A stretch of DNA of 64,000 nt from Bacteroidales bacterium (GCA_025361285.1 JANYAP010000022.1:255-64254); one strand, 5' to 3'. Numbered from the stretch's first letter, positions 12,312-63,654 are shown. A program made the numbers and translations. Notes: generated from the letters alone by a model not told the origin.

Positions 12312-14909
12312 CTAAAGACCTAATTTAGTTTCTATTGCGGCAATTTTTCCTTCGAGAATAGCAATATTTGTCTTCAAAATATCGGCATAAGCTTTGGTGG
12401 CAGCATCGCTAGTGGCACTTGGGTTGGCAACATTTATAATGTTGGTATTGTTTGCATTCAATCCATTTGACGCCATAATTGTAGCCGATGCAGTTAGTGT
12501 TCCCGAAAATGTTTTATTTCCAGCTATAGTTTGGTCTCCAGTTAGCGTAACATCGTCGTTTTTATTTGTATCCCAGTTGCTATCGAAAGTAACAGTGTTA
12601 CCGTTTGTAATGGTTAAATCGTAACCCGACAGAGTTAAGGTTTGCGATTCGGCGGTTAAGTAGGCCGGCGATGAGTTTTCCCATTTACTTGTGGCGCTGT
12701 TGTATCGAAGTATTTGATTATTCGCTGGTGATGAGATGTTTACATCGGCAAAGCCAAAATTTTGAAATGTAGGTTTGTTAGTGATATTACCCCAATGCAC
12801 TAAAGCCTCGCCATTGGTTTGAAGGTTCGTTTTGGTGTAATAGTTTGTACCCGTTACGTACCCAGCCAATGCGTGATTTCCCCATGTGTGAGCGGCATCC
12901 CAATTTGTTATTTGGGTGCTTGTAATACCGTTGGCGATGTGCGATGTTTTCATTGCATCGGTAATGCCATAACCATCTACGGTTATAGGCTTGTTTGTAA
13001 TGTTACCCCAATGCACTAGTGCTTGAGTGCTTGTTTGTAAGTTTGTTTTGCTATAATAATTGGCAGCAAGCGCATATCCTTTTGTAGAATGGTCGCCCCA
13101 TCCATAAGCTGTGTTCCAATTAGTTATTTGAGTTGCGCTAATGCCGTTTGCAGCGTGTGTTGTAGAAATTGCGTCGGTAATTCCGTAGCCTGCTATAGTT
13201 GTGGGTTTACCTGTTAGCGAACTCCAGTTTCCATCGAAAAATGATGGTTTATTTAACAAGTCGTTGTAACTACCTGAAGATGCAACTGTTGCAAAAGCAG
13301 GTTTTGCAGTTAAGGACGTGTATTTACCATCGAATAGAACTGGCTGACCCGATAAGTCGGCGTAATTTCCGCTAAACAATTCTGGTTTGTTTATCAAATC
13401 GTTGTAGCTCCCGCTTGTAGCAACTGTTGCAAAAGTTGGTACGTTCGTTAACGACGTCCATTTACTATCGAACAGAACGGGCTTACCCGATAGGTCGGCG
13501 TAATTTCCACTAAACACGTAAGGTTTATTGGATAAATCGTTGTAACTACCACTAAATAAAACAGGTTTGTTTAATAAATCGTTGTAACTACCAGTTGTGG
13601 CTACTGTTGCAAAAGTGGGTTTTCCGGTTAATGCGCCCCACGTACCGTTGAAAATTGCAGGTTTATCGGATAAATCGTTATAGCTACCGCTAAATAATGT
13701 TGGTTGATCGGTTAAATCGGTGTATTTTCCGCTTGTGGCAACAGTAGCGAAAGTGGGTTTGCCAGAAAGTGAGACCCAGGTTCCGTTGAAAATTGTTGGT
13801 TTATCGGATAAATCGTTGTAGCTACCGCTAAAAATTGTTGGTTTGTTTAATAAATCGGTATAATTACCGCTAGTGGCTATTAATGCGAATGTTGGTGTTT
13901 CTGTTAACGATGAGTACTTTCCATCGAAAAGTGTTGGTTTGCCAGATAAATCGGCGTAATTACCACTAAACAAAGTGGGCTTATTTGACAAATCAGCGTA
14001 GTTGCCGCTAAATAGGGTTGGTAAATTGTTTAAGTCGGTATAGATGCCTGTTGTAGCTACTTTTGCAAGCACAGGTTTTCCGGTAAGTGTATTCCAAGTT
14101 CCATCGAAAAGAGCGGGTTTATTTGATAAATCGTTGTAACTGCCGCTAAACAAGGCTGGTTTATCTAACAAATCGTTGTAACTACCGCTAGTTGCTATTG
14201 TTGCAAAGGCAGGTTTGCCAGTAAGCGCTACCCAAGTGCCATTAAAAATTGTTGGCTTATCGGTTAAGTCGGTGTATTTGCCACTAAACAATACTGGTTT
14301 GTTTATCAAGTCGTTGTAGCTCCCGCTTGTAGCAACTGTTGCAAAAGTTGGTTTTCCGTTTAATGTTTCCCAATTTCCGTCGAAAGTTGGTCGGTCGAGT
14401 AAGTCGTTATAACTGCCACTAAATGCCACGTTCGAAAAATTAGGTTTCCCAGAAACATTTTCCCAAGTTCCATCAAATACAAATGGTTTGTTTTTCAAAT
14501 CGTTATAATTTCCACTAAAGCCATTTCCTGCTTTATCGGCGTATTTTGCGTACGGAACGCTTAGTAATTGATTTATACCTATTTCGATGCCATTTACACT
14601 TACTTTTACAAAATAAGGATTATTTGCCCAATTTATTGTCGAAAAATTGCCCGAAACTAGTGTTCCGTTGCCAATTTCTATATTAACCTGCCCAAATTGG
14701 TTAGCATCGGACGAGTGTGTTTCGGTAAATACCGATGTGCCAGAGCTAGAGCCTTGTAGAATATCGATTTGGATATCTACTTTTTGGCTGGCAATTAAAT
14801 TTCCAGCGTTATCGCGTACAATTGCCTGATACTTAAACGCATTGGGACTTTGTCCAAACATATTTGATGCCAGCAGAAGGATAGCAATGGTGTTGATTAA
14901 CTTTTTCAT
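12312..14909 (-). CDS. secreted tail-fibre-like repeat protein (paralogue of 9077-12307, with a coiled-coil C-terminus instead of a lectin domain)
   Basis: 865 aa with the same N-terminal domain (FKYQAIVRD...SVPYA) and the same YNDLxNKP repeat field (nt ~13230-14550). It has two GYGITDA units, an IINVANPSATSDAATKAYAD motif typical of phage fibre proteins, and a C-terminal heptad-like ILEGKIAAIETKL. Only 4 nt separate it from the next gene. Confidence 0.85.
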   Translation of the reverse strand: MKKLINTIAILLLASNMFGQSPNAFKYQAIVRDNAGNLIASQKVDIQIDILQGSSSGTSVFTETHSSDANQFGQVNIEIGNGTLVSGNFSTINWANNPYFVKVSVNGIEIGINQLLSVPYAKYADKAGNGFSGNYNDLKNKPFVFDGTWENVSGKPNFSNVAFSGSYNDLLDRPTFDGNWETLNGKPTFATVATSGSYNDLINKPVLFSGKYTDLTDKPTIFNGTWVALTGKPAFATIATSGSYNDLLDKPALFSGSYNDLSNKPALFDGTWNTLTGKPVLAKVATTGIYTDLNNLPTLFSGNYADLSNKPTLFSGNYADLSGKPTLFDGKYSSLTETPTFALIATSGNYTDLLNKPTIFSGSYNDLSDKPTIFNGTWVSLSGKPTFATVATSGKYTDLTDQPTLFSGSYNDLSDKPAIFNGTWGALTGKPTFATVATTGSYNDLLNKPVLFSGSYNDLSNKPYVFSGNYADLSGKPVLFDSKWTSLTNVPTFATVATSGSYNDLINKPELFSGNYADLSGQPVLFDGKYTSLTAKPAFATVASSGSYNDLLNKPSFFDGNWSSLTGKPTTIAGYGITDAISTTHAANGISATQITNWNTAYGWGDHSTKGYALAANYYSKTNLQTSTQALVHWGNITNKPITVDGYGITDAMKTSHIANGITSTQITNWDAAHTWGNHALAGYVTGTNYYTKTNLQTNGEALVHWGNITNKPTFQNFGFADVNISSPANNQILRYNSATSKWENSSPAYLTAESQTLTLSGYDLTITNGNTVTFDSNWDTNKNDDVTLTGDQTIAGNKTFSGTLTASATIMASNGLNANNTNIINVANPSATSDAATKAYADILKTNIAILEGKIAAIETKLGL

Positions 14910-21307: not shown

Positions 21308-22558
21308 TTACAAATTATTTGATATATAGCGTTTTATAATAAATTTTACAGGATACCATGCGGCTAGAAAACCAATTATTAAAACTGTTATTAGAACTAA
21401 AAACACATCAACAAGCTTAATATTAACCGGATATGCGCTTATAATGAACGATCCGCTGCTCGGAAACTGCACAAAACCGTATTTTATTTGCAATGCGCAA
21501 ATTATAAGGCCTAGGCTAAGCCCTAGGAATGCTCCAAAAAACGAAATCATAATTCCTTCGAATAAAAAAACTTTTCTAATTAACTTGCTATCAGCACCTA
21601 TGCTGTGTAATGTGGCAATGTCTTTTTTCTTCTCGATAATAAGCATCGATAGCGACCCTACTATATTGAACGAAGCTATGGCTAGTATGAAGCTCAAAAT
21701 CATGAATATAGCCCATTTTTCGTATTTCATTATCCTGTAAAACAGTTCTTTTTGCTGATATCGGTTTTTTACATCGAATTGTGGTCCAAATAGTTGTTGT
21801 ACTTCTTTTTGTACTTGGGCTATTTCGGCATTTTCATCGGCTTTAATTTCTATAGATGTGATGGACAGCGTATCTTCGAGCAGTTCCTGAGCGAATGAAA
21901 TGGGCACAAGCACGTATTTTGTATCGTAATCCTGAAGTACATTAAATATGCCCGACGGGTATATATATTTCTGATTGAATGCATTTTCGGGATTCATTGA
22001 AATAGTTGCCGATTTGCGCGGAACGTAAATGGTTAGCGGCGTTATAAATTTGAGACCTACCTGAAGGTAATATGCAATACCTTGACCAACAATTGCATAC
22101 CGTTCGCCTTCGTTTTCGAGTAAAAACTTACCTTCAATAATGCTCGAATCCATGTTGTTGATAGCGTAGTAGTTACTGTCAACGCCTTTAATGGTAGCTA
22201 TATATTGCTTTTCGCCATATTTTAGTAAAGCATTTTCCTCAACTATCTTGCTAAATACTACAACGCCTTTAATTTCAGACAATTGCCTTAGCTTTTCATA
22301 ATCAGTTTGAAACGATTTTCCCTCAACAATAGTTATTTTTAAATCGGGATCGAAAGTGTTGAAAAGTGTTTGAATTAACCCGTCGAACCCGTTAAAAACC
22401 GATAGCACAATTATAAGTGCCATAGTACCAATTGTAACACCAGCAAGCGATATAGCCGATATTATGTTTATGGCATTATGCGACTTTTTAGCAAATAGAT
22501 ACCGTTTAGCTATGTAAAGTGGAAAGTTCAATGTTTTTATAATAGTATTTAGTACCAA
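21308..22558 (-). CDS. FtsX-family ABC transporter permease (LolC/LolE-like)
   Basis: 416 aa with an N-terminal IAKRYLFAKKS motif, a large periplasmic loop and a C-terminal 3-TM FtsX domain. The tracked TTG start lies inside a word repeat, so the in-frame TTG at 22531 (MNFPLYIAKRYL) is more likely. Confidence 0.85.
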   Translation of the reverse strand: MVLNTIIKTLNFPLYIAKRYLFAKKSHNAINIISAISLAGVTIGTMALIIVLSVFNGFDGLIQTLFNTFDPDLKITIVEGKSFQTDYEKLRQLSEIKGVVVFSKIVEENALLKYGEKQYIATIKGVDSNYYAINNMDSSIIEGKFLLENEGERYAIVGQGIAYYLQVGLKFITPLTIYVPRKSATISMNPENAFNQKYIYPSGIFNVLQDYDTKYVLVPISFAQELLEDTLSITSIEIKADENAEIAQVQKEVQQLFGPQFDVKNRYQQKELFYRIMKYEKWAIFMILSFILAIASFNIVGSLSMLIIEKKKDIATLHSIGADSKLIRKVFLFEGIMISFFGAFLGLSLGLIICALQIKYGFVQFPSSGSFIISAYPVNIKLVDVFLVLITVLIIGFLAAWYPVKFIIKRYISNNL

Positions 22559-22640
22559 GTACTTAGTAAATGGAACTTAGAAAATGGGTTTATAGATATT
22601 ACTAAGTACTAAGTACTCGGTACTCTGTACTCATTACTCT
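22546..22640. repeat. AGTAC-word low-complexity array
   Basis: Reads ...agtaccaagtacttagta...actaagtactaagtactcggtactctgtactcattactc. It shares the 13-mer AGTACCAAGTACT with 62569-62581. Confidence 0.7.
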
Positions 22641-23446
22641 TTCCAAGCCTTTACTATCAGTCCTGTTCCCGATTTGTGGGTCATTTTAACGTCTATATAG
22701 TTTAAAATAAGCGCAAAAGGGAAAGTTACTAAGAAGTAAAACGGAAGAATAAGCAGAAATAATTTGCTTTTATTAACCATTAATATTGGATATTTCATAG
22801 ATAGCTTCCACGAAATTTTTCCTGGGCAACCATACGAATACATTGTTTCGACCTTCGAAAAGCCCGAATTCGATAATTTTTCTTCAATATCGTTTGGGTT
22901 GTAACCTTCGCGAACGTGCTCTTCGATAAACGAGCTTTCCTCGTGGTCGTGTACGTCCGATCCGCCTTGATCCGAAGGTGTAGAAACCAACAGTATGCCG
23001 CCATTTTTTAGCGATGCGTGAAAGTTCTTAAATACCGCAACATCGTCCAATATATGCTCCATTACGTCAACCGACAGTATCATATCGTATTTATTGGGCT
23101 CGCAAAATTTGGTAAGGTCGGCTTCCTCGAATACAACCTGCTTAGCTTTACCGAGTTGAGTAAAAAAACGGTTGCAATCGGCTATCTGTTCGGCTTTTAC
23201 ATCAACACCTTTAATTTTCCATGTTGGCGACTGAGTTGACAGATAATGAACGTATTGCCCAAAGCCTGAACCAGCATCGAGTATTTCCACATTATCCGAA
23301 AAGGAACTTCGCATTTTTTTTACTTCGCGTTTTATATGCCATGTGCGTAAAAGCAACAAATTTAACATTTTGTAGAATATTACACGAAGGGTAGGAGTGG
23401 AGTTGAAAATTGTGCCTAGGGTGCGTTTAATTGGATCGTATTGCAT
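22634..23446 (-). CDS. class I SAM-dependent methyltransferase with a C-terminal membrane segment
   Basis: 270 aa with SAM motif I (ILDAGSGFGQY) and a D/E-containing motif II (FEEADL). Confidence 0.8.
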   Translation of the reverse strand: MQYDPIKRTLGTIFNSTPTLRVIFYKMLNLLLLRTWHIKREVKKMRSSFSDNVEILDAGSGFGQYVHYLSTQSPTWKIKGVDVKAEQIADCNRFFTQLGKAKQVVFEEADLTKFCEPNKYDMILSVDVMEHILDDVAVFKNFHASLKNGGILLVSTPSDQGGSDVHDHEESSFIEEHVREGYNPNDIEEKLSNSGFSKVETMYSYGCPGKISWKLSMKYPILMVNKSKLFLLILPFYFLVTFPFALILNYIDVKMTHKSGTGLIVKAWKE

Positions 23447-23457
23447 GAAAAAAGATA

Positions 23458-23484
23458 TTAGTCGTAAGTATTTAGTCGTAAGAC
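23458..23484. repeat. TTAGTCGTAAG direct repeat (AAGTCGTAAG word family)
   Basis: Two 11-mers lie 14 bp apart. The 11-mer AGTCGTAAGAC is identical at 36883-36893. Confidence 0.7.
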
Positions 23485-23494
23485 AATAGTGAAA

Positions 23495-23833
23495 TTATTT
23501 TTTTAGAAGTTCTTCAATTCTGTCGGCATAGTCCAAGCTATCGTCTATTACAAACGAAATTTCGGGAATTATTCGAAGCTGATTTTTAACGCGTTGCGCC
23601 AACAATGTTCGCACTGTTTTTGTAAATTGCTGAAGATGTACAAGATATTCGTCAACTTTTTCCGAAGGGAATATACTTAAAAACACCTTCGCGAAACTTA
23701 AATCGGGGCTAACCCTTACCACTGTTACTGTTACAAGTCTTCCTTGCAAAATATCTTTGTTCAGACGCTGAAAAATATCTCCTATATCCTTCTGTATTAA
23801 GCGAGCTACTTTGCTCTGTCGGGTCGATTCCAT
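23495..23833 (-). CDS. rbfA: ribosome-binding factor A
   Basis: 112 aa with an RQSKVARLIQKDIGDIF N-terminus and the overall RbfA pattern. Confidence 0.9.
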   Translation of the reverse strand: MESTRQSKVARLIQKDIGDIFQRLNKDILQGRLVTVTVVRVSPDLSFAKVFLSIFPSEKVDEYLVHLQQFTKTVRTLLAQRVKNQLRIIPEISFVIDDSLDYADRIEELLKK

Positions 23834-23989
23834 TGTCTATTATGTATTTGTGCGAAATAATTTTCGGCAAAACTCTATTTATTAAAAATTACGAAGATAT
23901 TAATAGTAATGTGAGCCACCAAAAGTAATGTTAAACAAATAACATTCCGCGATGTTTTAATATGCGAATCAATCTAATACAAAAAAATC

Positions 23990-24346
23990 ATGAAAAAAAA
24001 TTATTTAATTATAGTAGTAGCTTTTATAGCTTTGGTTTCGGGAATATTTGGTTGTAGTAAATCGAGCGTTAACATTGTCGCTCCAGCTAACGACACTGCT
24101 GTAGTTAATGTGTTAATGCAAGCTTCAACATTTACGCCTTCCAACCTTAATGTGGCTGTTAATACAACAGTTAAGTGGACTAATAAAGATGCGTATTTGC
24201 ATACAGTAACAAGCGATTCTGTTATGTTCGACAGTGGCAATATGGCCCAAAATGCGGTTTTCACTCATAAATTTACCAACAAAGGAAGCTTTAAATATCA
24301 CTGCTCTAAACACACGCATATGACGGGTACAGTTGTGGTTGAGTAA
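23990..24346 (+). CDS. secreted cupredoxin (plastocyanin/azurin-like blue copper protein)
   Basis: 118 aa with a signal peptide and lipobox-like GCS. The type-1 Cu ligand pattern is H (LHTVTSD) plus C-x2-H-x2-M (YHCSKHTHMTG). Confidence 0.8.
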   Translation: MKKNYLIIVVAFIALVSGIFGCSKSSVNIVAPANDTAVVNVLMQASTFTPSNLNVAVNTTVKWTNKDAYLHTVTSDSVMFDSGNMAQNAVFTHKFTNKGSFKYHCSKHTHMTGTVVVE

Positions 24347-24408
24347 TAAAACAGTTGATATTTTATTTATATTCGACCGTAATTAACAATTTTTTAAGTA
24401 ACATTTTA

Positions 24409-24416
24409 TAGTTTTG
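24409..24416 (+). promoter_or_regulatory. -7 box TAGTTTTG (followed by CA) upstream of the trpS repeat leader
   Basis: This is the only full TAnnTTTG match between 24347 and the trpS ATG. Confidence 0.4.
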
Positions 24417-24453
24417 CACTTCTTATAACAGGAAAATTCTGGTCAATAGAGTT

Positions 24454-24660
24454 CTACAACCTTTACAACCTTTACAACCTCTACAACCTTTACAACCTCT
24501 ACAACCTCTACAACCTCTACAACCTTTACAACCTCTACAACCTCTACAACCTTTACAACCTCTACAACCTCTACAACCTCTACAACCTTTGCAACCTCTA
24601 CAACCTTTACAACCTCTACAACCTTTACAACCTCTACAACCTCTACAACCTTTACAAACT
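24454..24660 (+). repeat. 23 x 9-bp perfect-phase tandem repeat YTACAACCT
   Basis: There are 14 CTACAACCT units and 9 TTACAACCT-type units (variants TTGCAACCT at 24589 and TTACAAACT at 24652). The array has one G in 207 nt and ends on the base before the trpS ATG. Confidence 0.97.
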
Positions 24661-25650
24661 ATGGAAATCGTTCTTAGCGGCATTAGGCCTACGGGCAACC
24701 TGCACATGGGTAATTACTTTGGTGCATTGCAAAATTTTGTTAAAATGCAACATCAATATAAATGCTACTTTTTTATCGCCGATTTGCATTCGCTTACCAC
24801 GCACCCTACACCAGCCGACTTGCATGGCAATGTTCGTACAGTGTTAGCCGAATATTTGGCATGCGGTCTCGATCCAGAAGCAGCTACTATTTTTGTGCAG
24901 AGCGACGTTCCTGAAATTTCGGAATTATACCTTCTGCTCAACATGAATGCGTATATTGGTGAACTTGAGCGAACTACCACTTTTAAAGATAAGGTACGCG
25001 CTCAACCCGATAACGTAAATGCTGGATTGCTTACATATCCTGTTCTGCAAGCGGCTGATATATTGATACATAAAGCAACGAAAGTCCCCGTAGGGAAAGA
25101 TCAAAAGCCACATCTGGAAATTACAGCTAAATACGCACGCCGGTTTAATCAGTTATATAAAGTTGATTATTTTCCTGAGCCTGAGGCATTTAATTTTGGT
25201 GAAAGCTTAATAAAAGTGCCAGGCCTCGATGGATCGGGTAAAATGGGAAAATCGGAAGGTAACGGTATTTTTTTGGCCGACGATCCTAAGGTTATCCGTA
25301 AGAAAGTTATGTCGGCAGTTACCGATGCTGGTCCCACGGTGTCGAACCAAGATATGACCGACGCCGTAAAAAATTTGTTTACGATTATGGATATTGTGTC
25401 GGCGCCTGATACAGTGCTGCACTTTCGTGAAAAATACAATACCTGCGAAATACGCTATGGCGACATGAAAAAACAGCTTGCCGAGGATATTGTAACATAC
25501 TTAACACCAATACGCGAGAAAATAAACGATATTTATAACAATAACGCTTATTTGCGCAAGGTAGTAGGTATCGGTACCGAAAAGGCTCGCGAAAGCGCTT
25601 CGAAAACTTTACGCGAAGTACGCGAAATTATTGGCTTTAGAGCTTTTTAG
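24661..25650 (+). CDS. trpS: tryptophan--tRNA ligase
   Basis: 329 aa from MEIVLSGIRPTGNLHMGNYFG (HIGH-type HMGN) with KMGKS (KMSKS-type). The tracked 24589 start is a TTG inside the repeat array. Confidence 0.95.
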   Translation: MEIVLSGIRPTGNLHMGNYFGALQNFVKMQHQYKCYFFIADLHSLTTHPTPADLHGNVRTVLAEYLACGLDPEAATIFVQSDVPEISELYLLLNMNAYIGELERTTTFKDKVRAQPDNVNAGLLTYPVLQAADILIHKATKVPVGKDQKPHLEITAKYARRFNQLYKVDYFPEPEAFNFGESLIKVPGLDGSGKMGKSEGNGIFLADDPKVIRKKVMSAVTDAGPTVSNQDMTDAVKNLFTIMDIVSAPDTVLHFREKYNTCEIRYGDMKKQLAEDIVTYLTPIREKINDIYNNNAYLRKVVGIGTEKARESASKTLREVREIIGFRAF

Positions 25651-26515: not shown

Positions 26516-26523
26516 TATATTTG
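26516..26523 (+). promoter_or_regulatory. -7 box TATATTTG
   Basis: Matches TAnnTTTG and overlaps the tracked TTG start at 26521. This argues for the downstream start at 26554. Confidence 0.4.
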
Positions 26524-26553
26524 CTAACCATTGAAACCTACAACTTTTTTATT

Positions 26554-29500
26554 TTGTTTTACTTCAGACCATATATAAAAATATACATAGTTGTTTTATT
26601 ATCAACTATTTGGGCGAGTAGCGTAAATTCGCAATCTTCTATATCGGGCATTATAAATTCCTATGCCGAAGTGAAAAGTGTTAACCAAACTACTAGGGAT
26701 CGGGTTGTTGTTGATAATTTGTCCTTATTTAAGAAACTCGATACGGTTTTAATTATTCAAATGAAAGGTGCTGTTATAGACACACTTAACGATCATCGAT
26801 TAATTGCGCCAATAAACAGTGCGGGAAAGTACGAATTTATTCAGGTTGAGGATACAATAGGCTCAACTGTAATTTTTACTGACAAGTTTTTAAACAAATA
26901 CGATAATGGCGAAGCCATTCAGCTTGTAAAAGTGCGGAGTTATAATACTGTAAAAGTTGCATCCTTATTAACCTGCCTGCCTTGGGATGGTAAAAAAGGC
27001 GGAATAGTTGCGTTTTTTGCCGAGGACACATTAATATTGGATGCCGATATTGATGTTTCGGGGAAAGGCTTTTTGGGAGCTAGTCCTATTAGGTACGATG
27101 GCAGTTGCGATTTTGGGGAAAGATATTATGCCGATATGGTTGCAGGCAAAAAGGGAGAAGGCATTGTTGGTAAGTATTTTAATAAAAATTATGGTGTAGG
27201 TTTTCTTGCAAACGGCGGCGGCGGTGGTAACGGCAAATATGCTGGCGGCGGTGGCGGCGGCGGTTTTGGCGAGGGTGGTGGTGGAAATAGAATGACATTA
27301 CTTTGCCCCGACGAATCGAATAAAACTGGCGGAGAACCTGGAATAGGTTTTTCGGCTAGTTTAGATTATTATAATGGCGCTGACTACGAACATAGAGATA
27401 GAATATTTTTTGGTGGTGGTGGCGGAAGTGGTACATACCCCGATGGAGCTGTGTCGTCTAAAGGTGGGAATGGTGGTGGCATAGTGTTTATTATTGCTCG
27501 TAATTTTATCCCTAACAATTATGTAATTAAGGCCAACGGCGAAAGTGTTATTATTCCATCAACCAACAATGCCGGTACTGGTGGTGGTGGTGGTGGTGGA
27601 AATATCTCAATTTATTCAGAAAAAATTGAAGGTACGTTTAAAGCCGAAGTTAAAGGCGGTAGCGGTGGCGGTAATACTAAAAACGAAATTGCCGATTATT
27701 GCTCAGGACAAGGTGGTGGCGGTGGTGGCGGTCTTATTTGGTTTACAGCTTCAAAGTCGGATATTATCGATAGCACTTTTTTAACCGAGGGCGGAAAATC
27801 GGGCGATTACCGATCGGCTACTAGTTGTGGCTTAAATAGTAACCCTGGTACACAAGGAAATTCTTTACGAGGATTAATGCCTGTTCTTAATGGTTTTTTG
27901 TATAATGTTATTAACGAGCCACATACCATTTGCTACGGACAACCTTCCCTCCCAATTGTTGGAAGTAATCCTCGTGGCGGGAACGGTATATATGCTTATA
28001 AATGGATCAAACGAAAGTATAATGTTAAGGGGTGGGAATTGATAGACGGTGCTTTGAATAAAGACTACACTGCTCCAGCCCTTTACGATACTACTATATT
28101 TCGACGTATTGTTTCCACATCGAAGATAAATTCCGAGGGCGCAACTATAATAATGACCGATTCTTCTAAAGCGTTGCAAGTTAATGTTATACCTCAAATA
28201 ATAAACAATAAAATTAATCCTAATTACACCGAAATTTGTTCAGGGCAACCAGCAGTTAACCTTATTGGTGAAATTGCATCACGTCAAGGAGGCACGGTAG
28301 CTTATTCATGGCAAACCCAAAAACCTCGCTATCAGGCAATTGATGTAAATTCCGTAGAAAAAGATTATTCTCAAACATTCAATACGGCTACAAATGTTAG
28401 CGATACAACGTATTATTACCGAACAGCAACATCGTTGTTCTGTAAGGTTACCGATAAAGCTACTATTATTGTGCATCCTGTGCTTACAAACAACTCCATT
28501 TCGGTAAACTTGGTTAAAAGCTATATGCAAGAAATTTGCAGTGGTTTGGTTCCTAAACAAATTGATGGCACAACTCCACTAGGCGGTAAGGCTGGGCAAT
28601 ATATTTATAGTTGGGAAAAAAGTTCCGATACCACAAATTGGTCGTTACTAGCAGATAGTTCATTCCAAAACCTTAATTTTGGGTCGTTAATCGATACAAC
28701 CTACTACAGACGAATTGTATCGTCGGGCTTAAACAATGTTTGTACCAATATTACTAATGCTTTTTTGATAAGTGTTCTTCCTAAAATCGACAATAATACT
28801 ATAACATCCTCTCAATCATTTATTTGTGAAGAAACTGCACCCAAACCATTTGTAAATTCTTTGCCAACTGGTGGGAATAATATATTTGTTTATCAATGGA
28901 TTAAAAGCCAAAATGGTGAATCTGATTGGGATTCTATCTTAAGCACATCCGACCGCGAAAAATACCCGAATAATAGATTAAGTGTGCCTACATCGTACAA
29001 AAGAGTTGTAAGATCAGGGTTATACGATTGTTGCATCGATACTAGCGAAGTAACTGTAACATTCTCAATTCAACCTAAATTCCGAAACGGACTAATTTCG
29101 CCCGATACAACCATTTGCACTAAACAACAACCAAATAAGATAGGGCCACGGCATAAAAACATACTTTCTGGCGGAAAACTTCCGTATAAATATCAATGGT
29201 ATAGCCGAATAGATAAAAGTAACACGTGGTCGTTATCAGCTTCCGATTCGGTGTTACAGCCTGTTATACTGAAAGATACATCGTATTTCAGAAGGATAGT
29301 ATTTTCTTCCGATTCCGTTTGTAGCGACACTGCAAATATGATAGTTAACGTTTTGCCCTCTATAAAAAATAATATTATAGAAGGCGAAAATGCTGTTTGT
29401 AACGATTCAACTCTTGCTCAAATAAACGGCGATAAATCGTTGGGGGGTGGTAATATGGAATATCGTTACGTTTGGGATTATAAAGCCGCAAACGAAAGCT

Positions 29501-30249
29501 GGAAATCAACTCAGGTTACCTCGGCAAATTATCCTGCCACTATATTTAATTCCGTAACCGACTCAATAATAACTACATTCAGACGAACTGTATATTCAGG
29601 TCTTCACGATTGTTGTGTAGATACTTCTGCCGTACACGATGTTGAGGTTTTTGCCCGTCCAATTTCGGGTGGCGCACTTATCGACACTTCTGTTGTGTTC
29701 AACTTTACATATAACCTTAAAGCTCCTAAACCTATACTCGGTCGCGGCGTATGGACAATTGTCGGTTACGATATTCAACCTGTACACGAAACCGAAACTA
29801 CTGCTACCGTAACTTTACCCGACCCCGACTTGAAATACGGTATCTATTGGGTTATAACCACTAACAAGGTTTGCCCAAGTTTAATCGATTCCTTTGCCAT
29901 AACTATAAAGGATATTAAGCGCTATAATGGTTTCTCGCCCAATGGCGACCAAAAAAACGATTACTTTATAATAAGCGGCTTGCAGAACCTAAAGGAAAAC
30001 GGCGACTTTTGGGAACTTAAAATACTAAACCGCTGGGGAGGCTTAGTGTATTCGGCCGATATTAATAATAACCGACTTAAGGATTTGGCTGATGATATGC
30101 CTTATACCGAAATTGGGATTCCTCTTTGGGATGGCAAAAATATAAATGCCGAAGATGTGGCAGAAGACACTTATTATTATGTATTAACAGTTTTTAAAAA
30201 AAATGACAAACCTCGCGATTATAAAGGGTTTGTAGTTATGAAGCGATAA
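26554..30249 (+). CDS. giant T9SS type-B (gliding-motility-associated C-terminal domain) cargo protein with a Gly-rich region and Cys-bracketed repeats
   Basis: The C-terminus (YNGFSPNGDQKNDYFIISGL...LKILNRWGGLVY...WDGKN...DTYYYVL) is the type-B/CHU_C sorting domain. There are about 7 repeats of ~90 aa with C..GG...Y.Y.W....YRR signatures, and poly-Gly stretches at nt ~27210-27740. The start is uncertain (TTG at 26554 gives a plausible signal peptide). Confidence 0.85.
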   Translation: MFYFRPYIKIYIVVLLSTIWASSVNSQSSISGIINSYAEVKSVNQTTRDRVVVDNLSLFKKLDTVLIIQMKGAVIDTLNDHRLIAPINSAGKYEFIQVEDTIGSTVIFTDKFLNKYDNGEAIQLVKVRSYNTVKVASLLTCLPWDGKKGGIVAFFAEDTLILDADIDVSGKGFLGASPIRYDGSCDFGERYYADMVAGKKGEGIVGKYFNKNYGVGFLANGGGGGNGKYAGGGGGGGFGEGGGGNRMTLLCPDESNKTGGEPGIGFSASLDYYNGADYEHRDRIFFGGGGGSGTYPDGAVSSKGGNGGGIVFIIARNFIPNNYVIKANGESVIIPSTNNAGTGGGGGGGNISIYSEKIEGTFKAEVKGGSGGGNTKNEIADYCSGQGGGGGGGLIWFTASKSDIIDSTFLTEGGKSGDYRSATSCGLNSNPGTQGNSLRGLMPVLNGFLYNVINEPHTICYGQPSLPIVGSNPRGGNGIYAYKWIKRKYNVKGWELIDGALNKDYTAPALYDTTIFRRIVSTSKINSEGATIIMTDSSKALQVNVIPQIINNKINPNYTEICSGQPAVNLIGEIASRQGGTVAYSWQTQKPRYQAIDVNSVEKDYSQTFNTATNVSDTTYYYRTATSLFCKVTDKATIIVHPVLTNNSISVNLVKSYMQEICSGLVPKQIDGTTPLGGKAGQYIYSWEKSSDTTNWSLLADSSFQNLNFGSLIDTTYYRRIVSSGLNNVCTNITNAFLISVLPKIDNNTITSSQSFICEETAPKPFVNSLPTGGNNIFVYQWIKSQNGESDWDSILSTSDREKYPNNRLSVPTSYKRVVRSGLYDCCIDTSEVTVTFSIQPKFRNGLISPDTTICTKQQPNKIGPRHKNILSGGKLPYKYQWYSRIDKSNTWSLSASDSVLQPVILKDTSYFRRIVFSSDSVCSDTANMIVNVLPSIKNNIIEGENAVCNDSTLAQINGDKSLGGGNMEYRYVWDYKAANESWKSTQVTSANYPATIFNSVTDSIITTFRRTVYSGLHDCCVDTSAVHDVEVFARPISGGALIDTSVVFNFTYNLKAPKPILGRGVWTIVGYDIQPVHETETTATVTLPDPDLKYGIYWVITTNKVCPSLIDSFAITIKDIKRYNGFSPNGDQKNDYFIISGLQNLKENGDFWELKILNRWGGLVYSADINNNRLKDLADDMPYTEIGIPLWDGKNINAEDVAEDTYYYVLTVFKKNDKPRDYKGFVVMKR

Positions 30250-43103: not shown

Positions 43104-43267
43104 TCTGTCATTTTTACATTTATTATTTGTAATCCGTAATTTGCGCATCTGTAATTTGTAATTTCCTCATTTCCTCAGTTCTAAATCTGTCATTTGTAAT
43201 TTGTAATTTGTCATTTGCACATCTGTCATCTGTAATTCCCACACCTGTAATTTGTAATCTCCACATC
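43104..43267 (+). repeat. degenerate 7-8-bp tandem word array (TGTAATT / TGTCATT / YCCACAYC / TGCRCATC)
   Basis: There are 8 TGTAAT, 4 TGTCAT and about 6 related C-rich words head-to-tail. The array ends 12 nt before the aspS -7 box. Confidence 0.85.
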
Positions 43268-43278
43268 AATAATTTTCG

Positions 43279-43306: not shown

Positions 43307-45070
43307 ATGTACAGAACACATACCTGTGGAGAATTAACCATGGCGCAAGTTGGTAAAACTGTTACCCTTGCCGGATGGATGCAACGCTCGCGCGATTTGG
43401 GCGGAATGACTTTTATCGACCTTCGCGACCGTTATGGGCTTACCCAGCTTGTATTTAACATGGAAACCAATGCTGGTCTTTGCACCGAAGCACGTAAGTT
43501 TGGTCGCGAATTTGTACTTCAGGCAACTGGCAAGGTTACAGAACGATACAACAAAAACCTAAACATGCCCACAGGGGAAATAGAAATTATTGTTGACGAA
43601 ATTAAAGTGTTAAATGTTTCAGCAACACCTCCTTTCACTATCGAAGACGAATCCGATGGTGGCGACGAACTTCGTATGAAATACCGGTATCTCGATTTGC
43701 GCCGAAGCACTGTTCGCCGTAATCTGGAGCTTCGCCACCACATGGCACAGGAAGTTCGTAAATATTTCGATGCACTTGGTTTTATGGAAGTTGAAACACC
43801 AGTACTCATAAAATCGACACCCGAAGGAGCACGCGACTTTGTTGTTCCTTCGCGATTAAATCCGGGGCAGTTTTACGCTTTGCCGCAGTCGCCACAAACC
43901 TTCAAGCAACTTATGATGGTGGCAGGCTTCGACCGCTATTTTCAAATTGTAAAATGCTTTCGCGACGAGGATTTACGCGCCGACCGCCAGCCCGAGTTTA
44001 CGCAAATTGATTGCGAAATGGCTTTTGTAGAACAGGAGGATATTCTTCAGGCTTTCGAGGGTATGCTAAAACACCTGTTTAAAACCGTTCGAGGCGTTGA
44101 GTTTACCGAACCTTTCGTGCGAATGACATTTGCCGATGCCATCAATACATACGGTAACGATAAGCCCGATTTGCGCTTTGGCATGAAAATACATGAAGTT
44201 ACCAATTTGGTAAAAGGTAAAGGTTTTAGCATTTTCGATAACGCCGATTACGTTGGGGGTATATGTGCCGAGGGTTGCAGCGAATACACACGCAAACAGC
44301 TCGACGAACTTACCGAATGGGTTAAACGTCCACAAATTGGGGCATTGGGGTTAATTTATATAAAATTTAATATCGATGGTACGCTTAAATCGACGGTCGA
44401 TAAATTCTATTCTCCCGAAGAGATTAAGGCATTGGCCGATAACTTCAACGCAAAACCAAGCGATATAATTTTTCTTCTTCCCGGAAAGAAAAAGAAAACA
44501 CTTGCACAACTTAGTGAGCTTCGCCTCGAAATGGGCGCTCGCTTGGGCTTACGCGACAAAAATACTTTCGCACCACTTTGGGTAATCGATTTTCCGCTTT
44601 TCGAATACGACGAAGAAACTGGCAGGTATTACGCTATGCATCACCCATTTACATCGCCAAAAATTGACGATTTACAATACTTCGAAACCGATTCGGCTCG
44701 TGTTCGGGCCAACGCTTACGATTGTGTTGTAAACGGCGTTGAACTTGGTGGCGGTTCCATTCGTATTCACGATCAGGAATTGCAACAACGTATGTTTAAA
44801 GTACTTGGCTTTACTAAGGAACAGGCCGAATACCAATTCGGGTTTCTAATGAATGCCTTTACTTATGGCGCCCCTCCGCATGGCGGCATTGCCTTTGGCT
44901 TCGACCGTCTGGCTTCCATGTTTGCTGGTCTTGACTCCATTCGCGATGTAATTGCCTTCCCTAAAAACAACTCAGGCCGCGATGTAATGATCGATAGCCC
45001 ATCGCATATTGCCGACGAGCAACTCAAGGAGTTGAATATTAAGGTTGAAGTGAAGATGGAGAAGTCGTAA
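43307..45070 (+). CDS. aspS: aspartate--tRNA ligase
   Basis: 587 aa with [10 protein letters not shown], an OB-fold, class II motifs ([30 protein letters not shown]) and a bacterial insertion domain. Confidence 0.95.
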
Positions 45071-45102
45071 GTTTGACGATTGCTAATCGTTTTAGAATTG
45101 TG

Positions 45103-45155
45103 TTTATAAGGTTACAGCCTTATAAACATGTTTTATAAGGTTACAGCCTTATAAA
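45103..45155. repeat. two identical 24-bp perfect palindromes TTTATAAGG-TTACAG-CCTTATAAA, 29 bp apart
   Basis: Read directly (45103-45126 and 45132-45155). Each has 9-bp arms and a 6-nt loop. They lie downstream of the aspS stop and 120-170 bp upstream of the SatD-like gene. Confidence 0.9.
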
Positions 45156-45274
45156 TTAATAGAAAGTATTATATTTGTTTTTTTAAATTGCACACACAAT
45201 GATTATTACGAACTGATTACGTAACTAACTGTTAATTTATTTACTGCATAGTTTTTATATCTTTTCAATTTGGC

Positions 45275-45964
45275 ATGATTAAGGCAACAATATCTGGCGA
45301 CATAATTGCATCGACAACCATAAGTGTTGACGATAGATTGTTGTTTTTAAGCAAGTTAAAAGAACTGTTTGCACGCATCGAAAATAAATACAACTTTTAT
45401 GGTCGCATTATAAAGGGCGATTATTTGGAATGTTATATCGACGACCCACGCTTTGCGCTGCGAATAGCACTAATAATTAAAAACTTTATAAAATCGACGA
45501 GTGCATACGCATTGAACAAAAGTACCAAAAACGAAAGTCGCGGAAAATATTTCAAAATTTATGGTGTTCGTTTGGCAATTGGCGTAGGCAGTATTGAGCG
45601 TTTCGATAAAGAAAACGGAATTATTGAAGGCGAATCTATTCAATTTTCGGGGCGAATTATTGGCAACGAAAGTTCGCACAATAACGAGAAAAGGGTGGTA
45701 ATAAAGCAAACACTTTTTATTCAAACATCAAACACATTGTGGAACAACGAGTTTAATGTAACCGTTTCTCTTATCGACTTTCTCCTTACAAAAAGCACGT
45801 CAAACCAATGTGCCATTATTATCGAAAAGCTTTTGGGCGAAAGCGAAGAGCAAATTGCAACGCAACTGAATATTAGTCAATCGGCAGTAAACCAGCGTTC
45901 TAAATCGGGAGGGTGGAATGCTATCGAAAAAGCTATCGAACGATTCGAAAACGTTGTTCAATAA
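45275..45964 (+). CDS. SatD-like protein: nucleotidyl-cyclase-homology-like N-domain + C-terminal sigma-70-region-4-like HTH
   Basis: 229 aa with ISGDIIAST, IKGDYLECY and VRLAIGVGSIE....GESIQFSGR, which echo class III cyclase/GGDEF-fold motifs. The C-terminal HTH is EEQIATQLNISQSAVNQRSKSG. The family name is recalled from Pfam SatD and was not verified. Confidence 0.55.
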   Translation: MIKATISGDIIASTTISVDDRLLFLSKLKELFARIENKYNFYGRIIKGDYLECYIDDPRFALRIALIIKNFIKSTSAYALNKSTKNESRGKYFKIYGVRLAIGVGSIERFDKENGIIEGESIQFSGRIIGNESSHNNEKRVVIKQTLFIQTSNTLWNNEFNVTVSLIDFLLTKSTSNQCAIIIEKLLGESEEQIATQLNISQSAVNQRSKSGGWNAIEKAIERFENVVQ

Positions 45965-48185: not shown

Positions 48186-48286
48186 TACCTTTGTTCCCAA
48201 ATACTATTTACTCATTACTTAGTACTCAATACTATTTTTACCTTTGTTCCCAATTACTAGTTACTCAGTACTTAGTACTCAATACT
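48186..48286 (+). repeat. 2 x 53-bp tandem duplication, each unit carrying a -7 box TACCTTTG and AGTACT words
   Basis: Units 48186-48233 and 48239-48286 are identical at 45 of 48 positions. -7-like boxes lie at 48186-48193 and 48239-48246. The second unit ends 5 nt before the queD ATG. Confidence 0.85.
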
Positions 48287-48291
48287 TTTTT

Positions 48292-48708
48292 ATGACATAC
48301 GAAATATTCAAAGAATTCCGCTTCGAAGCTGCGCATAGGTTGGTAAAAAACTACACAGGCAAATGCACTAATAATCACGGGCATTCATGGCATGTGCGTA
48401 TTCACCTGCAAGCCAATTCGCTCGATGAAAAAGATATGCTTATCGATTTTCAGGAAGTGAAAGTGCTAAAGCAATGGATTGACGATAACCTCGACCACGC
48501 CACACTGCTTTGGGAAAACGACCCAATGTGCGCGTATATTCGTCAATCGGAGCAACGCATTTACGTTACGTTAAAAAATCCCACATCGGAGCATATAGCC
48601 GAAATTATTATGCAACAAGCTATTAGACTTTTCCAAAATAACCGAATAAACGTTGCATGCGTAGAAGTAAACGAAACCTGCACTACCGGCGCTAAGATCT
48701 ATCAGTAA
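48292..48708 (+). CDS. queD: 6-carboxy-5,6,7,8-tetrahydropterin synthase
   Basis: 138 aa from MTYEIFKEFRFEAAHRL, with NHGHSWHV Zn-binding histidines. The tracked TTG start at 48244 lies in the repeat. Confidence 0.9.
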   Translation: MTYEIFKEFRFEAAHRLVKNYTGKCTNNHGHSWHVRIHLQANSLDEKDMLIDFQEVKVLKQWIDDNLDHATLLWENDPMCAYIRQSEQRIYVTLKNPTSEHIAEIIMQQAIRLFQNNRINVACVEVNETCTTGAKIYQ

Positions 48709-62522: not shown

Positions 62523-62560
62523 GAGAATAAAATGAGTATTTTTGCCAAAAGTAGCGATTT

Positions 62561-62596
62561 TAGTACTAAGTACCAAGTACTAAGTACTTAGTACTT
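62561..62596. repeat. AGTAC-word array
   Basis: Reads tagtactaagtaccaagtactaagtacttagtacttga, between the divergent CPBP and dusB genes. Confidence 0.75.
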
Positions 62597-62625
62597 GATA
62601 ACCAGCAAACACGTACAATTAAAAA

Positions 62626-63654
62626 ATGAGAATAGGCACAATTGATTTAGGTGAAAAGCCACTTTTTCTGGCACCGATGGAGGACGTAACTGACCCATCG
62701 TTTCGTTATATATGCAAGCAATATGGGGCTGATATGATGTACACCGAATTTATTTCGAGCGACGGCTTAATACGCGATGCCCGAACAAGTGTTAAAAAGC
62801 TCGATATATTTGATTATGAGCGCCCAATTGGTATTCAAATATATGGTCATCTTATTGAACCTATGGTTGAGGCGGCTAAAATTGCCGAAGCTGCTAATCC
62901 CGATGTTATCGATATTAATTTTGGCTGTCCGGTTCGTAAAATTGCTGCACGTGGCGCAGGATCGGGCATGATGAACAATGTTCCACTTATGGTAACAATG
63001 ACCAAAGCCATAGTTGACGCCGTAAAAATACCAGTAACCGTAAAAACCCGATTGGGTTACGACGAAAATTCGAAGAATATTGTTGAAATTGCCGAACGGC
63101 TGCAAGATGTTGGTATTCAAGCATTAACTATACACGGACGAACTCGGGCGCAACTGTACAAAGGCGTTGCCGATTGGACACTTATTGGCGATGTAAAAAA
63201 CAATGCGCGAATGAATATTCCCATAATTGGAAATGGCGATATAAATAGTGCAGAAAGGGCAGGGGAGATGTTTGATAAATACGGGGTTGATGGTATTATG
63301 ATTGCACGAGCTACGTACGGCCGACCTTGGATATTTAAGGAAATTAAACATTATTTAGCAACCGGAATGTTAATGCCCTCATTGTCAATACTGGAAAAGG
63401 TGGAATTGGCAAAAATGCATTTGCAAAAGTCGTTCGATATAAAGGGCTGCACTGTTGGCATTTACGAAATGCGCCGGCATCTTACCAATTATTTTAAAGG
63501 CTTACCTCATTTTAAAGAAACCCGGTTAAAATTGGTAACAACGCTCGATATTGTGGAGCTAATGAGTATTTTAGACGATATAGCCATAAAATACGAAGGC
63601 TTTCAGCCCGAAAACGAAGCAGAGGAAACAAGTGCAGTTAATGAGGATTTGTAA
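62626..63654 (+). CDS. dusB: tRNA-dihydrouridine synthase
   Basis: 342 aa with LAPMEDVTD, DINFGCP (catalytic Cys) and the HGRT motif of the Dus TIM barrel, plus a C-terminal helical domain. Confidence 0.9.
   Translation: MRIGTIDLGEKPLFLAPMEDVTDPSFRYICKQYGADMMYTEFISSDGLIRDARTSVKKLDIFDYERPIGIQIYGHLIEPMVEAAKIAEAANPDVIDINFGCPVRKIAARGAGSGMMNNVPLMVTMTKAIVDAVKIPVTVKTRLGYDENSKNIVEIAERLQDVGIQALTIHGRTRAQLYKGVADWTLIGDVKNNARMNIPIIGNGDINSAERAGEMFDKYGVDGIMIARATYGRPWIFKEIKHYLATGMLMPSLSILEKVELAKMHLQKSFDIKGCTVGIYEMRRHLTNYFKGLPHFKETRLKLVTTLDIVELMSILDDIAIKYEGFQPENEAEETSAVNEDL

Follow-up and report, generated by a model that had tools for sequence, protein, structure and literature searches.

Background

Long simple-sequence repeats, which have the cyanobacterial STRR repeats as broader kin, include the closest counterparts of the element described here, an array of 23 copies of the 9-nucleotide (nt) unit YTACAACCT directly before trpS, the gene for tryptophanyl-tRNA synthetase, in a 64,000-nt stretch of DNA from a Bacteroidales bacterium (GCA_025361285.1 JANYAP010000022.1:255-64254; the whole stretch is called the window, and positions are counted from its first letter). 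As cited in a later paper, the term "long simple sequence repeats" covers units of 5-11 nt (Mrazek 2007, cited in PMC4679880). The TAACTGA heptamer repeats, found in Beggiatoaceae, cyanobacteria and five Bacteroidetes (MacGregor 2015, PMC4679880), are intergenic, point forward and lie a few to tens of nt from start codons, with as many as 43 copies in Bacteroidetes; relatives lack them in the orthologous spacers, further heptamer repeats occur beside them, and no function is known for them (PMC4679880). YTACAACCT arrays resemble them in consisting of head-to-tail intergenic units at many loci, in facing forward near start codons, in being restricted to a lineage and in co-occurring with other short repeats. 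They differ in that the unit is an unrelated 9-mer in an uncultured Bacteroidales lineage, and in that the trpS array lies between a start codon and a promoter conserved at 63 loci, so that its transcription as a leader is better grounded.

Tandem repeats in 5' untranslated regions (5'-UTRs) are also known from contingency genes for surface proteins of pathogens. In Haemophilus influenzae, an (ATCTTTC)n repeat occupies the 5'-UTR of hmw1A and hmw2A, and hmw1A expression drops as the repeat number rises (PMC12721329); uspA2 of Moraxella catarrhalis has an (AGAT)n repeat in its 5'-UTR, given as 6-23 copies where it is cited in PMC4679880. Like the trpS array, whose transcription is predicted, these are G-free or G-poor tandem repeats between promoter and start codon. 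Unlike it, they belong to contingency genes with documented copy-number polymorphism and graded expression, and in the hmw genes the repeat takes effect by way of a long hairpin, one arm of which is G-rich, and RNase III cleavage, whereas the trpS array has no complementary arm.

The array before trpS is a further case of intergenic and 5'-UTR long simple-sequence repeats, and thus of a known kind. It is probably a lineage-specific repeat generated by slippage, which would give trpS an unstructured, C-rich leader with a non-specific effect on the gene.

Structure and reality of the array

Positions 24454-24660 of the plus strand (207 nt) consist of 23 units placed head to tail in a single phase without slip: 14 CTACAACCT, seven TTACAACCT, one TTGCAACCT (unit 16, from 24589) and, as degenerate last unit at 24652-24660, one TTACAAACT. 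This unit count agrees with a preliminary description of the locus, which had reported 23 in-phase copies ending one base before the trpS ATG (24661) and had divided them into 14 and nine TTACAACCT-type units, a division that is right once both variant units are included (seven plus two). Tandem Repeats Finder (TRF) places the end of the array at 24657 and gives it a score of 340, all other short-period arrays in the window scoring at most 56. By these 23 in-phase units and this score the array belongs among the long simple-sequence repeats with 5-11-nt units, and its location is that of TAACTGA repeats, being intergenic, in forward orientation on the sense strand and abutting the trpS start codon. 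No second YTACAACCT array was found in the window, the part of this genome that was read.

The array contains 82 C, 69 A, 55 T and a single G at 24591, which is the one G in unit 16 that had been reported before. Its G-free runs are 139 and 71 nt long, compared with 46 nt for the next-longest run in the window; because the unit itself has no G, the near-absence of G from the array is not an independent observation. The sense strand includes no ATG, no GTG, one TTG (24589) and no stop codon in any of its frames. In the last unit a C-to-A change puts an A at position -3 of the ATG. The closing ACT of this unit equals the ancestral context (actATG in relative L003), and relatives likewise have A at -3 (attATG, actATG), a feature that favours initiation in Bacteroidota (PMC6847099).

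Contigs of the same species were retrieved from the Logan contigs by exact look-up of the RbfA protein and of a cupredoxin-like protein, both encoded upstream of trpS. Those from three independent sequencing runs (SRR20627838, SRR22198308 and SRR23617164) are 99.2-99.8% identical to positions 21490-24480 of the window, and every contig that reaches the array opens it with the same three units and breaks off after 27-29 nt of it, as is typical of short-read assemblers. Because independent contigs run into the same junction, which at least three independent samples share, the array is no assembly artefact. The left junction GGTCAATAGAGTTCTACAACCT had no match in the JGI metagenome collection, part of the window has an identical counterpart in the NCBI metagenome-assembled genome (MAG) GCA_043724375.1, which is fragmented, contigs found via the gene downstream of trpS do not extend to trpS, and an all-against-all BLAST among the array-bearing loci gave no orthologous pairs.

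These contigs also bear on the reading of the array as a contingency locus, that is a phase-variable variable-number tandem repeat in which gain or loss of units switches or grades trpS expression. A position between promoter and start codon, as in hmw1A (PMC12721329) and UspA2 (via PMC4679880), fits such a role, and the units are so uniform as to suggest that homogenisation is still going on. However, trpS encodes an essential housekeeping enzyme and is not a surface or host-interaction gene, the G-rich partner arm or hairpin of the hmw system is missing, and the same-species contigs all end inside the array, so that no copy-number polymorphism can be observed from them. We regard a contingency locus as highly improbable.

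The trpS gene itself (24661-25650, plus strand) encodes a protein of 329 amino acids (aa) with the Pfam domain PF00579 (E = 8.6e-68) and homologues of up to 91% identity. Most of the best 120 homologues are 329 aa long, and the best-listed ones start with MEIV, METV or MDTV. None of the longer homologues examined has a repeat-derived N-terminal extension, their extra length consisting of internal insertions or of unrelated upstream sequence; an exact look-up of the window's TrpS protein returned no record. Judged by its homologues, the ATG at 24661 is the true start of trpS. The listing of open reading frames (ORFs) contains both gene-caller artefacts that had been foreseen, a (QPL)7 extension in a 353-aa ORF from TTG (MQPLQPL...) and a Cys-rich CRGCKGC ORF of 94 aa on the minus strand. 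Since the homologues begin at MEIV, METV or MDTV and mostly have 329 aa, both ORFs are artefacts of the repeat, and coding readings of the array were rejected; the minus-strand ORF moreover overlaps the trpS start.

A QP-rich internal insertion in one TrpS homologue (P0033, 349 aa; L138 1631-1780) was considered as a relative of the array and rejected. It repeats 40 nt of trpS coding DNA from close by, is flanked by a repeated 20-mer and most likely represents a local duplication or an assembly chimera.

A conserved promoter and a leader of variable length

The trpS promoter (24398-24416, plus strand) is marked by the 19-mer AACATTTTATAGTTTTGCA (24400-24418), which contains the -7 box TAGTTTTG (24409-24416). 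A scan for sigma-70 promoters and terminators, which does not cover Bacteroidota promoters, returned nothing relevant in the leader; TAnnTTTG was therefore searched separately. In the region from the upstream gene to the trpS ATG (24347-24660), TAGTTTTG is the sole exact match, as had been claimed for a full -7 box upstream of the array. Transcription starts 4-5 nt past the -7 box in Flavobacterium johnsoniae (PMC6847099), and the start of the trpS transcript is predicted at about 24421-24422.

A scan of public metagenomes with the 19-mer gave 93 matches, 64 of which lie directly upstream of trpS. The metagenome trpS matches, eight relatives with matching synteny (TrpS 85-91% identical) and the window together make up 63 distinct loci, and AACATTTTATAGTTTTGCA is invariant upstream of trpS in all of them. 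From the 19-mer to the ATG the distance is 2 nt at 37 distinct loci, 23-28 nt at 19, 43-56 nt at six and 242 nt at one, the window. Combined with the spacing of 4-5 nt between box and start, a distance of 2 nt would make the A of the ATG the first transcribed base, which implies a leaderless trpS mRNA in most lineages. The eight relatives have the identical 19-mer and no array, and no leader repeat was found at any of the 62 other trpS loci (the eight relatives and 54 further ones), the same absence from orthologous spacers that has been described for TAACTGA.

The part of the window's 5' leader that is not repetitive (cttcttataacaggaaaattctggtcaatagagtt, 24419-24453, plus strand) aligns loosely to the 53-56-nt leaders of the closest relatives, and without the array the leader would measure about 45-54 nt, a normal length for the clade and similar to that of the closest relatives. 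Because the array-free leader is of clade-normal length and 62 other loci are without the repeat, the array is, on this comparison, a net gain of about 200 nt, recent and confined to this lineage, in a leader that elsewhere is short or missing. Since the promoter upstream of it is conserved, the array is expected to enter the mRNA within a leader of about 240 nt; the invariance of the 19-mer at 63 loci lends support to the same proposal in the preliminary description. The array does not form the entire leader, as was also stated there; about 32 nt of predicted non-repeat leader come first.

The only G of the array, in unit 16, creates the one-mismatch -7-box-like site AACCTTTG (24584-24591, plus strand), the only such site within the leader. 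It lies 70 nt before the ATG and had been pointed out as a TTTGCA core, which our search confirms to be a near-consensus -7 box. Similar -7 boxes, TACCTTTG and TATCTTTG, are found directly 3' of YTACAACCT arrays at two loci of other genomes (L010 and L020). The site may possibly act as a secondary, compensating internal promoter.

Several features of the spacer stand apart from the array. The divergent rbfA-trpS spacer (about 50 nt in the lineages with the 2-nt distance) is almost invariant in many Bacteroidota metagenome contigs (L045-L137), with the consensus GGCAAAAGTACGTTTTTTCAAGAACATTTTATAGTTTTGCAcgATG and two -7 boxes placed back to back, TACTTTTG serving rbfA (minus strand) and TAGTTTTG serving trpS. 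The spacing in the 37 distinct loci would imply leaderless mRNAs for rbfA as well as for trpS. The -7 box of trpS carries a G at -10, which is reported to be virtually absent from F. johnsoniae promoters (PMC6847099), and the promoter 19-mer AACATTTTATAGTTTTGCA also occurs upstream of a tRNA gene in three contigs (L058, L075 and L124).

The order of the genes for FtsX, a methyltransferase, RbfA and TrpS is common to the window and its relatives, with rbfA (23495-23833, minus strand; Pfam RBFA) as the ancestral divergent neighbour of trpS. In the window, a gene for a cupredoxin-like protein of 118 aa (23990-24346, plus strand; Pfam Cupredoxin_1) lies between the two, co-directional with trpS, and its stop codon is 107 nt upstream of the array. 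None of the eight relatives examined has this gene between rbfA and trpS, so the spacer has gained both a gene and a repeat in the lineage of the window. No terminator-like site was found between the cupredoxin-like gene and trpS in the terminator scan.

Predicted properties of the leader RNA

In the predicted minimum free energy structure nearly the whole array is unpaired (z-score +1.58 relative to shuffles), so that folding prediction supports the unstructured, G-free RNA proposed earlier; the G-rich strand, folded as DNA, gave no structure. The omega leader found in tobacco mosaic virus, about 68 nt long, G-poor, CAA-rich and unstructured, acts as a translational enhancer. The trpS leader is similar to it in being nearly G-free, composed of A, C and U and predicted to lack structure, and the two share a UUACAAC-like word. 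The omega leader is not a pure tandem array, however, and an enhancer effect in Bacteroidota would follow only by analogy. The related proposal that the array serves as a landing pad for ribosomes is compatible with the sequence but unnecessary, for relatives translate trpS with leaders of 0-56 nt; since they manage with these, the array is not demonstrably needed.

A second property is the excess of C over G, in which the array is the top stretch of the window with 34 C and no G per 80 nt (window mean of C minus G per 80 nt, -1.25; standard deviation, 5.9). Rho utilisation (rut) sites are C>G-biased, weakly structured RNA with an optimum of 60-90 nt, each Rho subunit contacts 5 nt and is separated from the next by linkers of 4-5 nt, giving a period of 9-10 nt with A and C preferred, and Rho is encoded in Bacteroidota (2025 review, PMC12360218). 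The array shows C>G bias, weak predicted structure, more than the required length and no translation, and since its unit length also fits the Rho period, the 23-unit leader should be an excellent Rho substrate. It shares with rut sites a C>G-biased, unstructured and untranslated RNA of more than 60-90 nt and a 9-nt period that equals one contact plus one linker; it differs from them in that natural rut sites are not tandem repeats, and the link to Rho is drawn here from sequence. An oligomeric protein wrapped by the leader RNA had been suggested before, an idea that survives in changed form only, with the Rho hexamer as the obvious candidate.

The array might accordingly function as a rut site or attenuator, with one A/C-rich 9-nt unit per Rho subunit and the copy number setting the strength. 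Transcripts from the trpS promoter, and read-through from the cupredoxin-like gene, would then be terminated prematurely unless initiation at the AUG were efficient, and the YTACAACCT arrays that follow stop codons in related genomes would be Rho-dependent terminators. In favour of this explanation are the base composition and predicted lack of structure of the array, with the TTG at 24589 as sole potential start codon, and the agreement of rut length, period, base preference and the occurrence of Rho in Bacteroidota (PMC12360218). On the other hand, the specificity of Bacteroidota Rho is assumed from Escherichia coli, and a strong attenuator before an essential housekeeping gene, absent from all relatives, would not be obviously useful. 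With the genomic distribution described below also considered, a function of the array as rut site or attenuator is possible but unlikely.

YTACAACCT arrays in related genomes

A repeat scan of one genome per species, with a threshold of three consecutive units, identified 35 genome loci with at least three YTACAACCT units. About 20 of these are located in Bacteroidales or Bacteroidetes MAGs with two to six loci each (MFD01231.bin.1.99, six; JTS-AC376, four; SMAG_U6961 and MFD03899.bin.2.103, three each; SMAG_U6955, two); matches in other phyla are in part coding repeats and in part short intergenic arrays. The longest array in the MAGs has 13 units, and all are intergenic according to a simple ORF map. 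The C/T alternation at position 1 of the unit recurs across unlinked loci and genomes. Eleven MAG arrays lie in forward orientation 6-171 nt upstream of a start codon, as does the window array at 0 nt. Reverse arrays hug stop codons or face an inverted copy, with which they could form long hairpins. The array before trpS therewith fits a repeat family, and a repeat-prone type of genome, that appear typical of this Bacteroidales clade.

The distribution speaks on both sides of the Rho explanation. Twelve of the 16 forward arrays, that of the window included, lie 1-126 nt 3' of the stop codon of a co-directional gene, as expected for terminators. However, four forward arrays are located in divergent spacers, and an exact -7 box stands between array and gene in five of the 11 forward upstream cases, three divergent spacers among them, so that the array is upstream of the promoter and outside the mRNA in these five. 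Reverse, G-rich arrays and inverted pairs are also found past stop codons, and the other repeat families of the same genomes are mostly not G-free. Whether forward arrays take the place of intrinsic terminators was compared as well, but the counts, 0 of 11 against 13 of 131, carry no information either way. A wider form of the proposal is that YTACAACCT arrays are modular Rho-loading terminators or insulators of variable copy number throughout this Bacteroidales clade, the trpS array being a Rho attenuator that couples transcription to initiation efficiency and its single G a compensating promoter. This combination we judge decidedly unlikely; if it were true, finding one and the same unit at unlinked loci would suggest that these genomes have a dedicated process by which repeats are generated or selected.

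The recurrence of the unit also raises the possibility of multivalent binding sites for a clade-specific DNA- or RNA-binding protein (of the S1, Csp or RRM type, or a transcription factor), whose network trpS would have joined recently. The same unit with the same Y at position 1 occurs at two to six unlinked loci per MAG in several MAGs, 11 loci plus the window are in forward orientation within 171 nt of a start codon compared with at most two in reverse, and the same proposal has been raised for TAACTGA repeats (PMC4679880). Against it, the arrays keep no constant place with respect to the predicted promoter (upstream of the -7 box, in the leader, past stop codons), the downstream genes are functionally unrelated, unrelated repeats often adjoin the arrays, no candidate protein emerged, and at trpS the array is missing in all relatives. 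Such a binding-site family is improbable in our view.

The genes downstream of the arrays encode a phosphofructokinase, a thioredoxin, an aldo-keto reductase, an aminotransferase, a Sua5/YciO protein, LemA, an M1 peptidase and others, which share no functional theme and of which none is tied to tryptophan. The TRAP-regulated trp leader of Bacillus has 9-11 (G/U)AG triplets spaced 2-3 nt apart and, in addition, antiterminator and terminator hairpins that overlap each other. A parallel to this system had been drawn before, and the idea of a tryptophan-responsive platform at trpS, either TRAP-like or another amino-acid-sensing leader, was considered; the likeness consists in a periodic single-stranded RNA before a Trp-related gene that could wrap an oligomeric ring. 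Nothing beyond the Trp-related gene and this RNA favours the idea. The array is devoid of (G/U)AG triplets and of alternative hairpins, the leader showing neither stable structure nor a terminator-like site; a permissive Rfam scan of positions 23800-25000 gave three chance-level matches (E at least 1.5), none of them a T-box or other leader family; the array is missing at all 62 other trpS loci with this promoter, those of the eight relatives included; and in other genomes the same arrays flank unrelated genes. A tryptophan-sensing element is thus not supported, and this reading, already disfavoured, is in all probability wrong.

In related MAGs (L004, L005, L007, L023, L029, L031 and L037), YTACAACCT arrays abut arrays of unrelated units such as GCAGTCTT (20 copies), TTAGTTG (10 copies), CTAAGCA and GCACGACT, forming compound repeat islands. 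Inverted pairs of arrays, potential long hairpins, were seen at L016, L021, L022 and L036.

Proposed origin and points against it

The preferred explanation, a slippage-generated repeat with a non-specific effect, may be outlined as follows. Replication slippage or unequal recombination within the 5' leader of trpS would have produced the array, possibly from the TTTACA motif that relatives have about 15-20 nt upstream of the ATG, and would have moved the start codon about 200 nt further from a deeply conserved promoter. In Bacteroidota, mRNA structure and upstream adenines, A-3 among them, tune initiation, and AUG is depleted close to start codons (PMC6847099). Because initiation depends on structure and adenines rather than on Shine-Dalgarno pairing, an insertion of this kind could be tolerated before an essential gene; the resulting leader should be acceptable to ribosomes that ignore Shine-Dalgarno sequences, with the A at -3 kept. 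Its effect on trpS would most likely be non-specific and dependent on copy number, through leader length and probably through Rho loading, in which case trpS transcription would be sensitive to array length and to the speed of ribosome engagement at the adjacent AUG. A weak internal promoter made by the single G may offset the effect of Rho.

Several observations weigh against this explanation. Neutral slippage leaves unexplained why one 9-mer with the same C/T alternation recurs at many loci, and it does not account for the bias towards forward orientation. The 23 units are almost twice those of any other array found (13 at most), and the promoter beside the array is perfectly conserved; both could indicate selection. 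The start site and the leader are predictions from sequence, and a slippage-prone repeat is expected to vary in copy number, for which the same-species contigs, all ending inside the array, provide no view. The preliminary description had taken identical arrays at random, non-genic positions as the mark of a neutral microsatellite. Scattered arrays do exist in related genomes, but they are intergenic and orientation-biased and thus not random.

Other repeats in the window and the clade

Both the window and the array-bearing loci of other genomes contain many further tandem arrays of 7-9 nt with other units, often side by side. No TAACTGA repeats were found in the window. The notion that repeats of the clade are generally G-free was rejected, since only eight of 34 repeat families lack G or C on the strand given.

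Quasi-palindromic heptamers (AGTACTN / TACTNAG) occur in three intergenic regions of the window (22543-22639, 48186-48292 and 62560-62597). At 48186-48292 a 53-nt unit comprising the -7 box TACCTTTG and heptamers is duplicated right before an ATG at 48292, and a -7 box and an ATG flank the heptamers at 62537-62626. Because AGTACTN heptamers separate -7 box and ATG of at least two other genes, leaders built from repeats are not unique to trpS here.

Elsewhere in the window, about 18 degenerate copies of TGTAATT/TGTCATT (43106-43275) fill the spacer before a gene starting at 43307, and the palindromic element TTATAAGGTTACAGCCTTATAAA, which may form hairpins, is present twice (45100-45160) in the spacer before a gene at 45275. 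Within coding sequence, repeats with a period of 138 nt, a sub-period of 42 nt and 72-81% matches (13282-14009) fall into a minus-strand ORF (12312-14909) and probably reflect a repeated protein domain, and G-rich GGC/GGT triplet repeats (27091-27732) encode poly-glycine runs in a protein of 1242 aa (26521-30249) with a CHU_C-type C-terminal domain.

Implications

The locus is prone to errors of annotation and assembly: gene callers either lengthen TrpS wrongly by a (QPL)7 stretch or call a spurious Cys-rich ORF on the minus strand, and assemblies from short reads are interrupted by the array. For the biology of the lineage, it offers a clean natural example of a repeat of about 200 nt placed in the leader of an essential gene, a leader that is otherwise short or lacking, in bacteria that initiate translation without Shine-Dalgarno pairing. 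The wider question for such repeat families is why the same 9-mer recurs, with a bias in orientation, at many intergenic sites. The match of unit length and composition to the Rho hexamer provides a concrete hypothesis for at least the YTACAACCT family.

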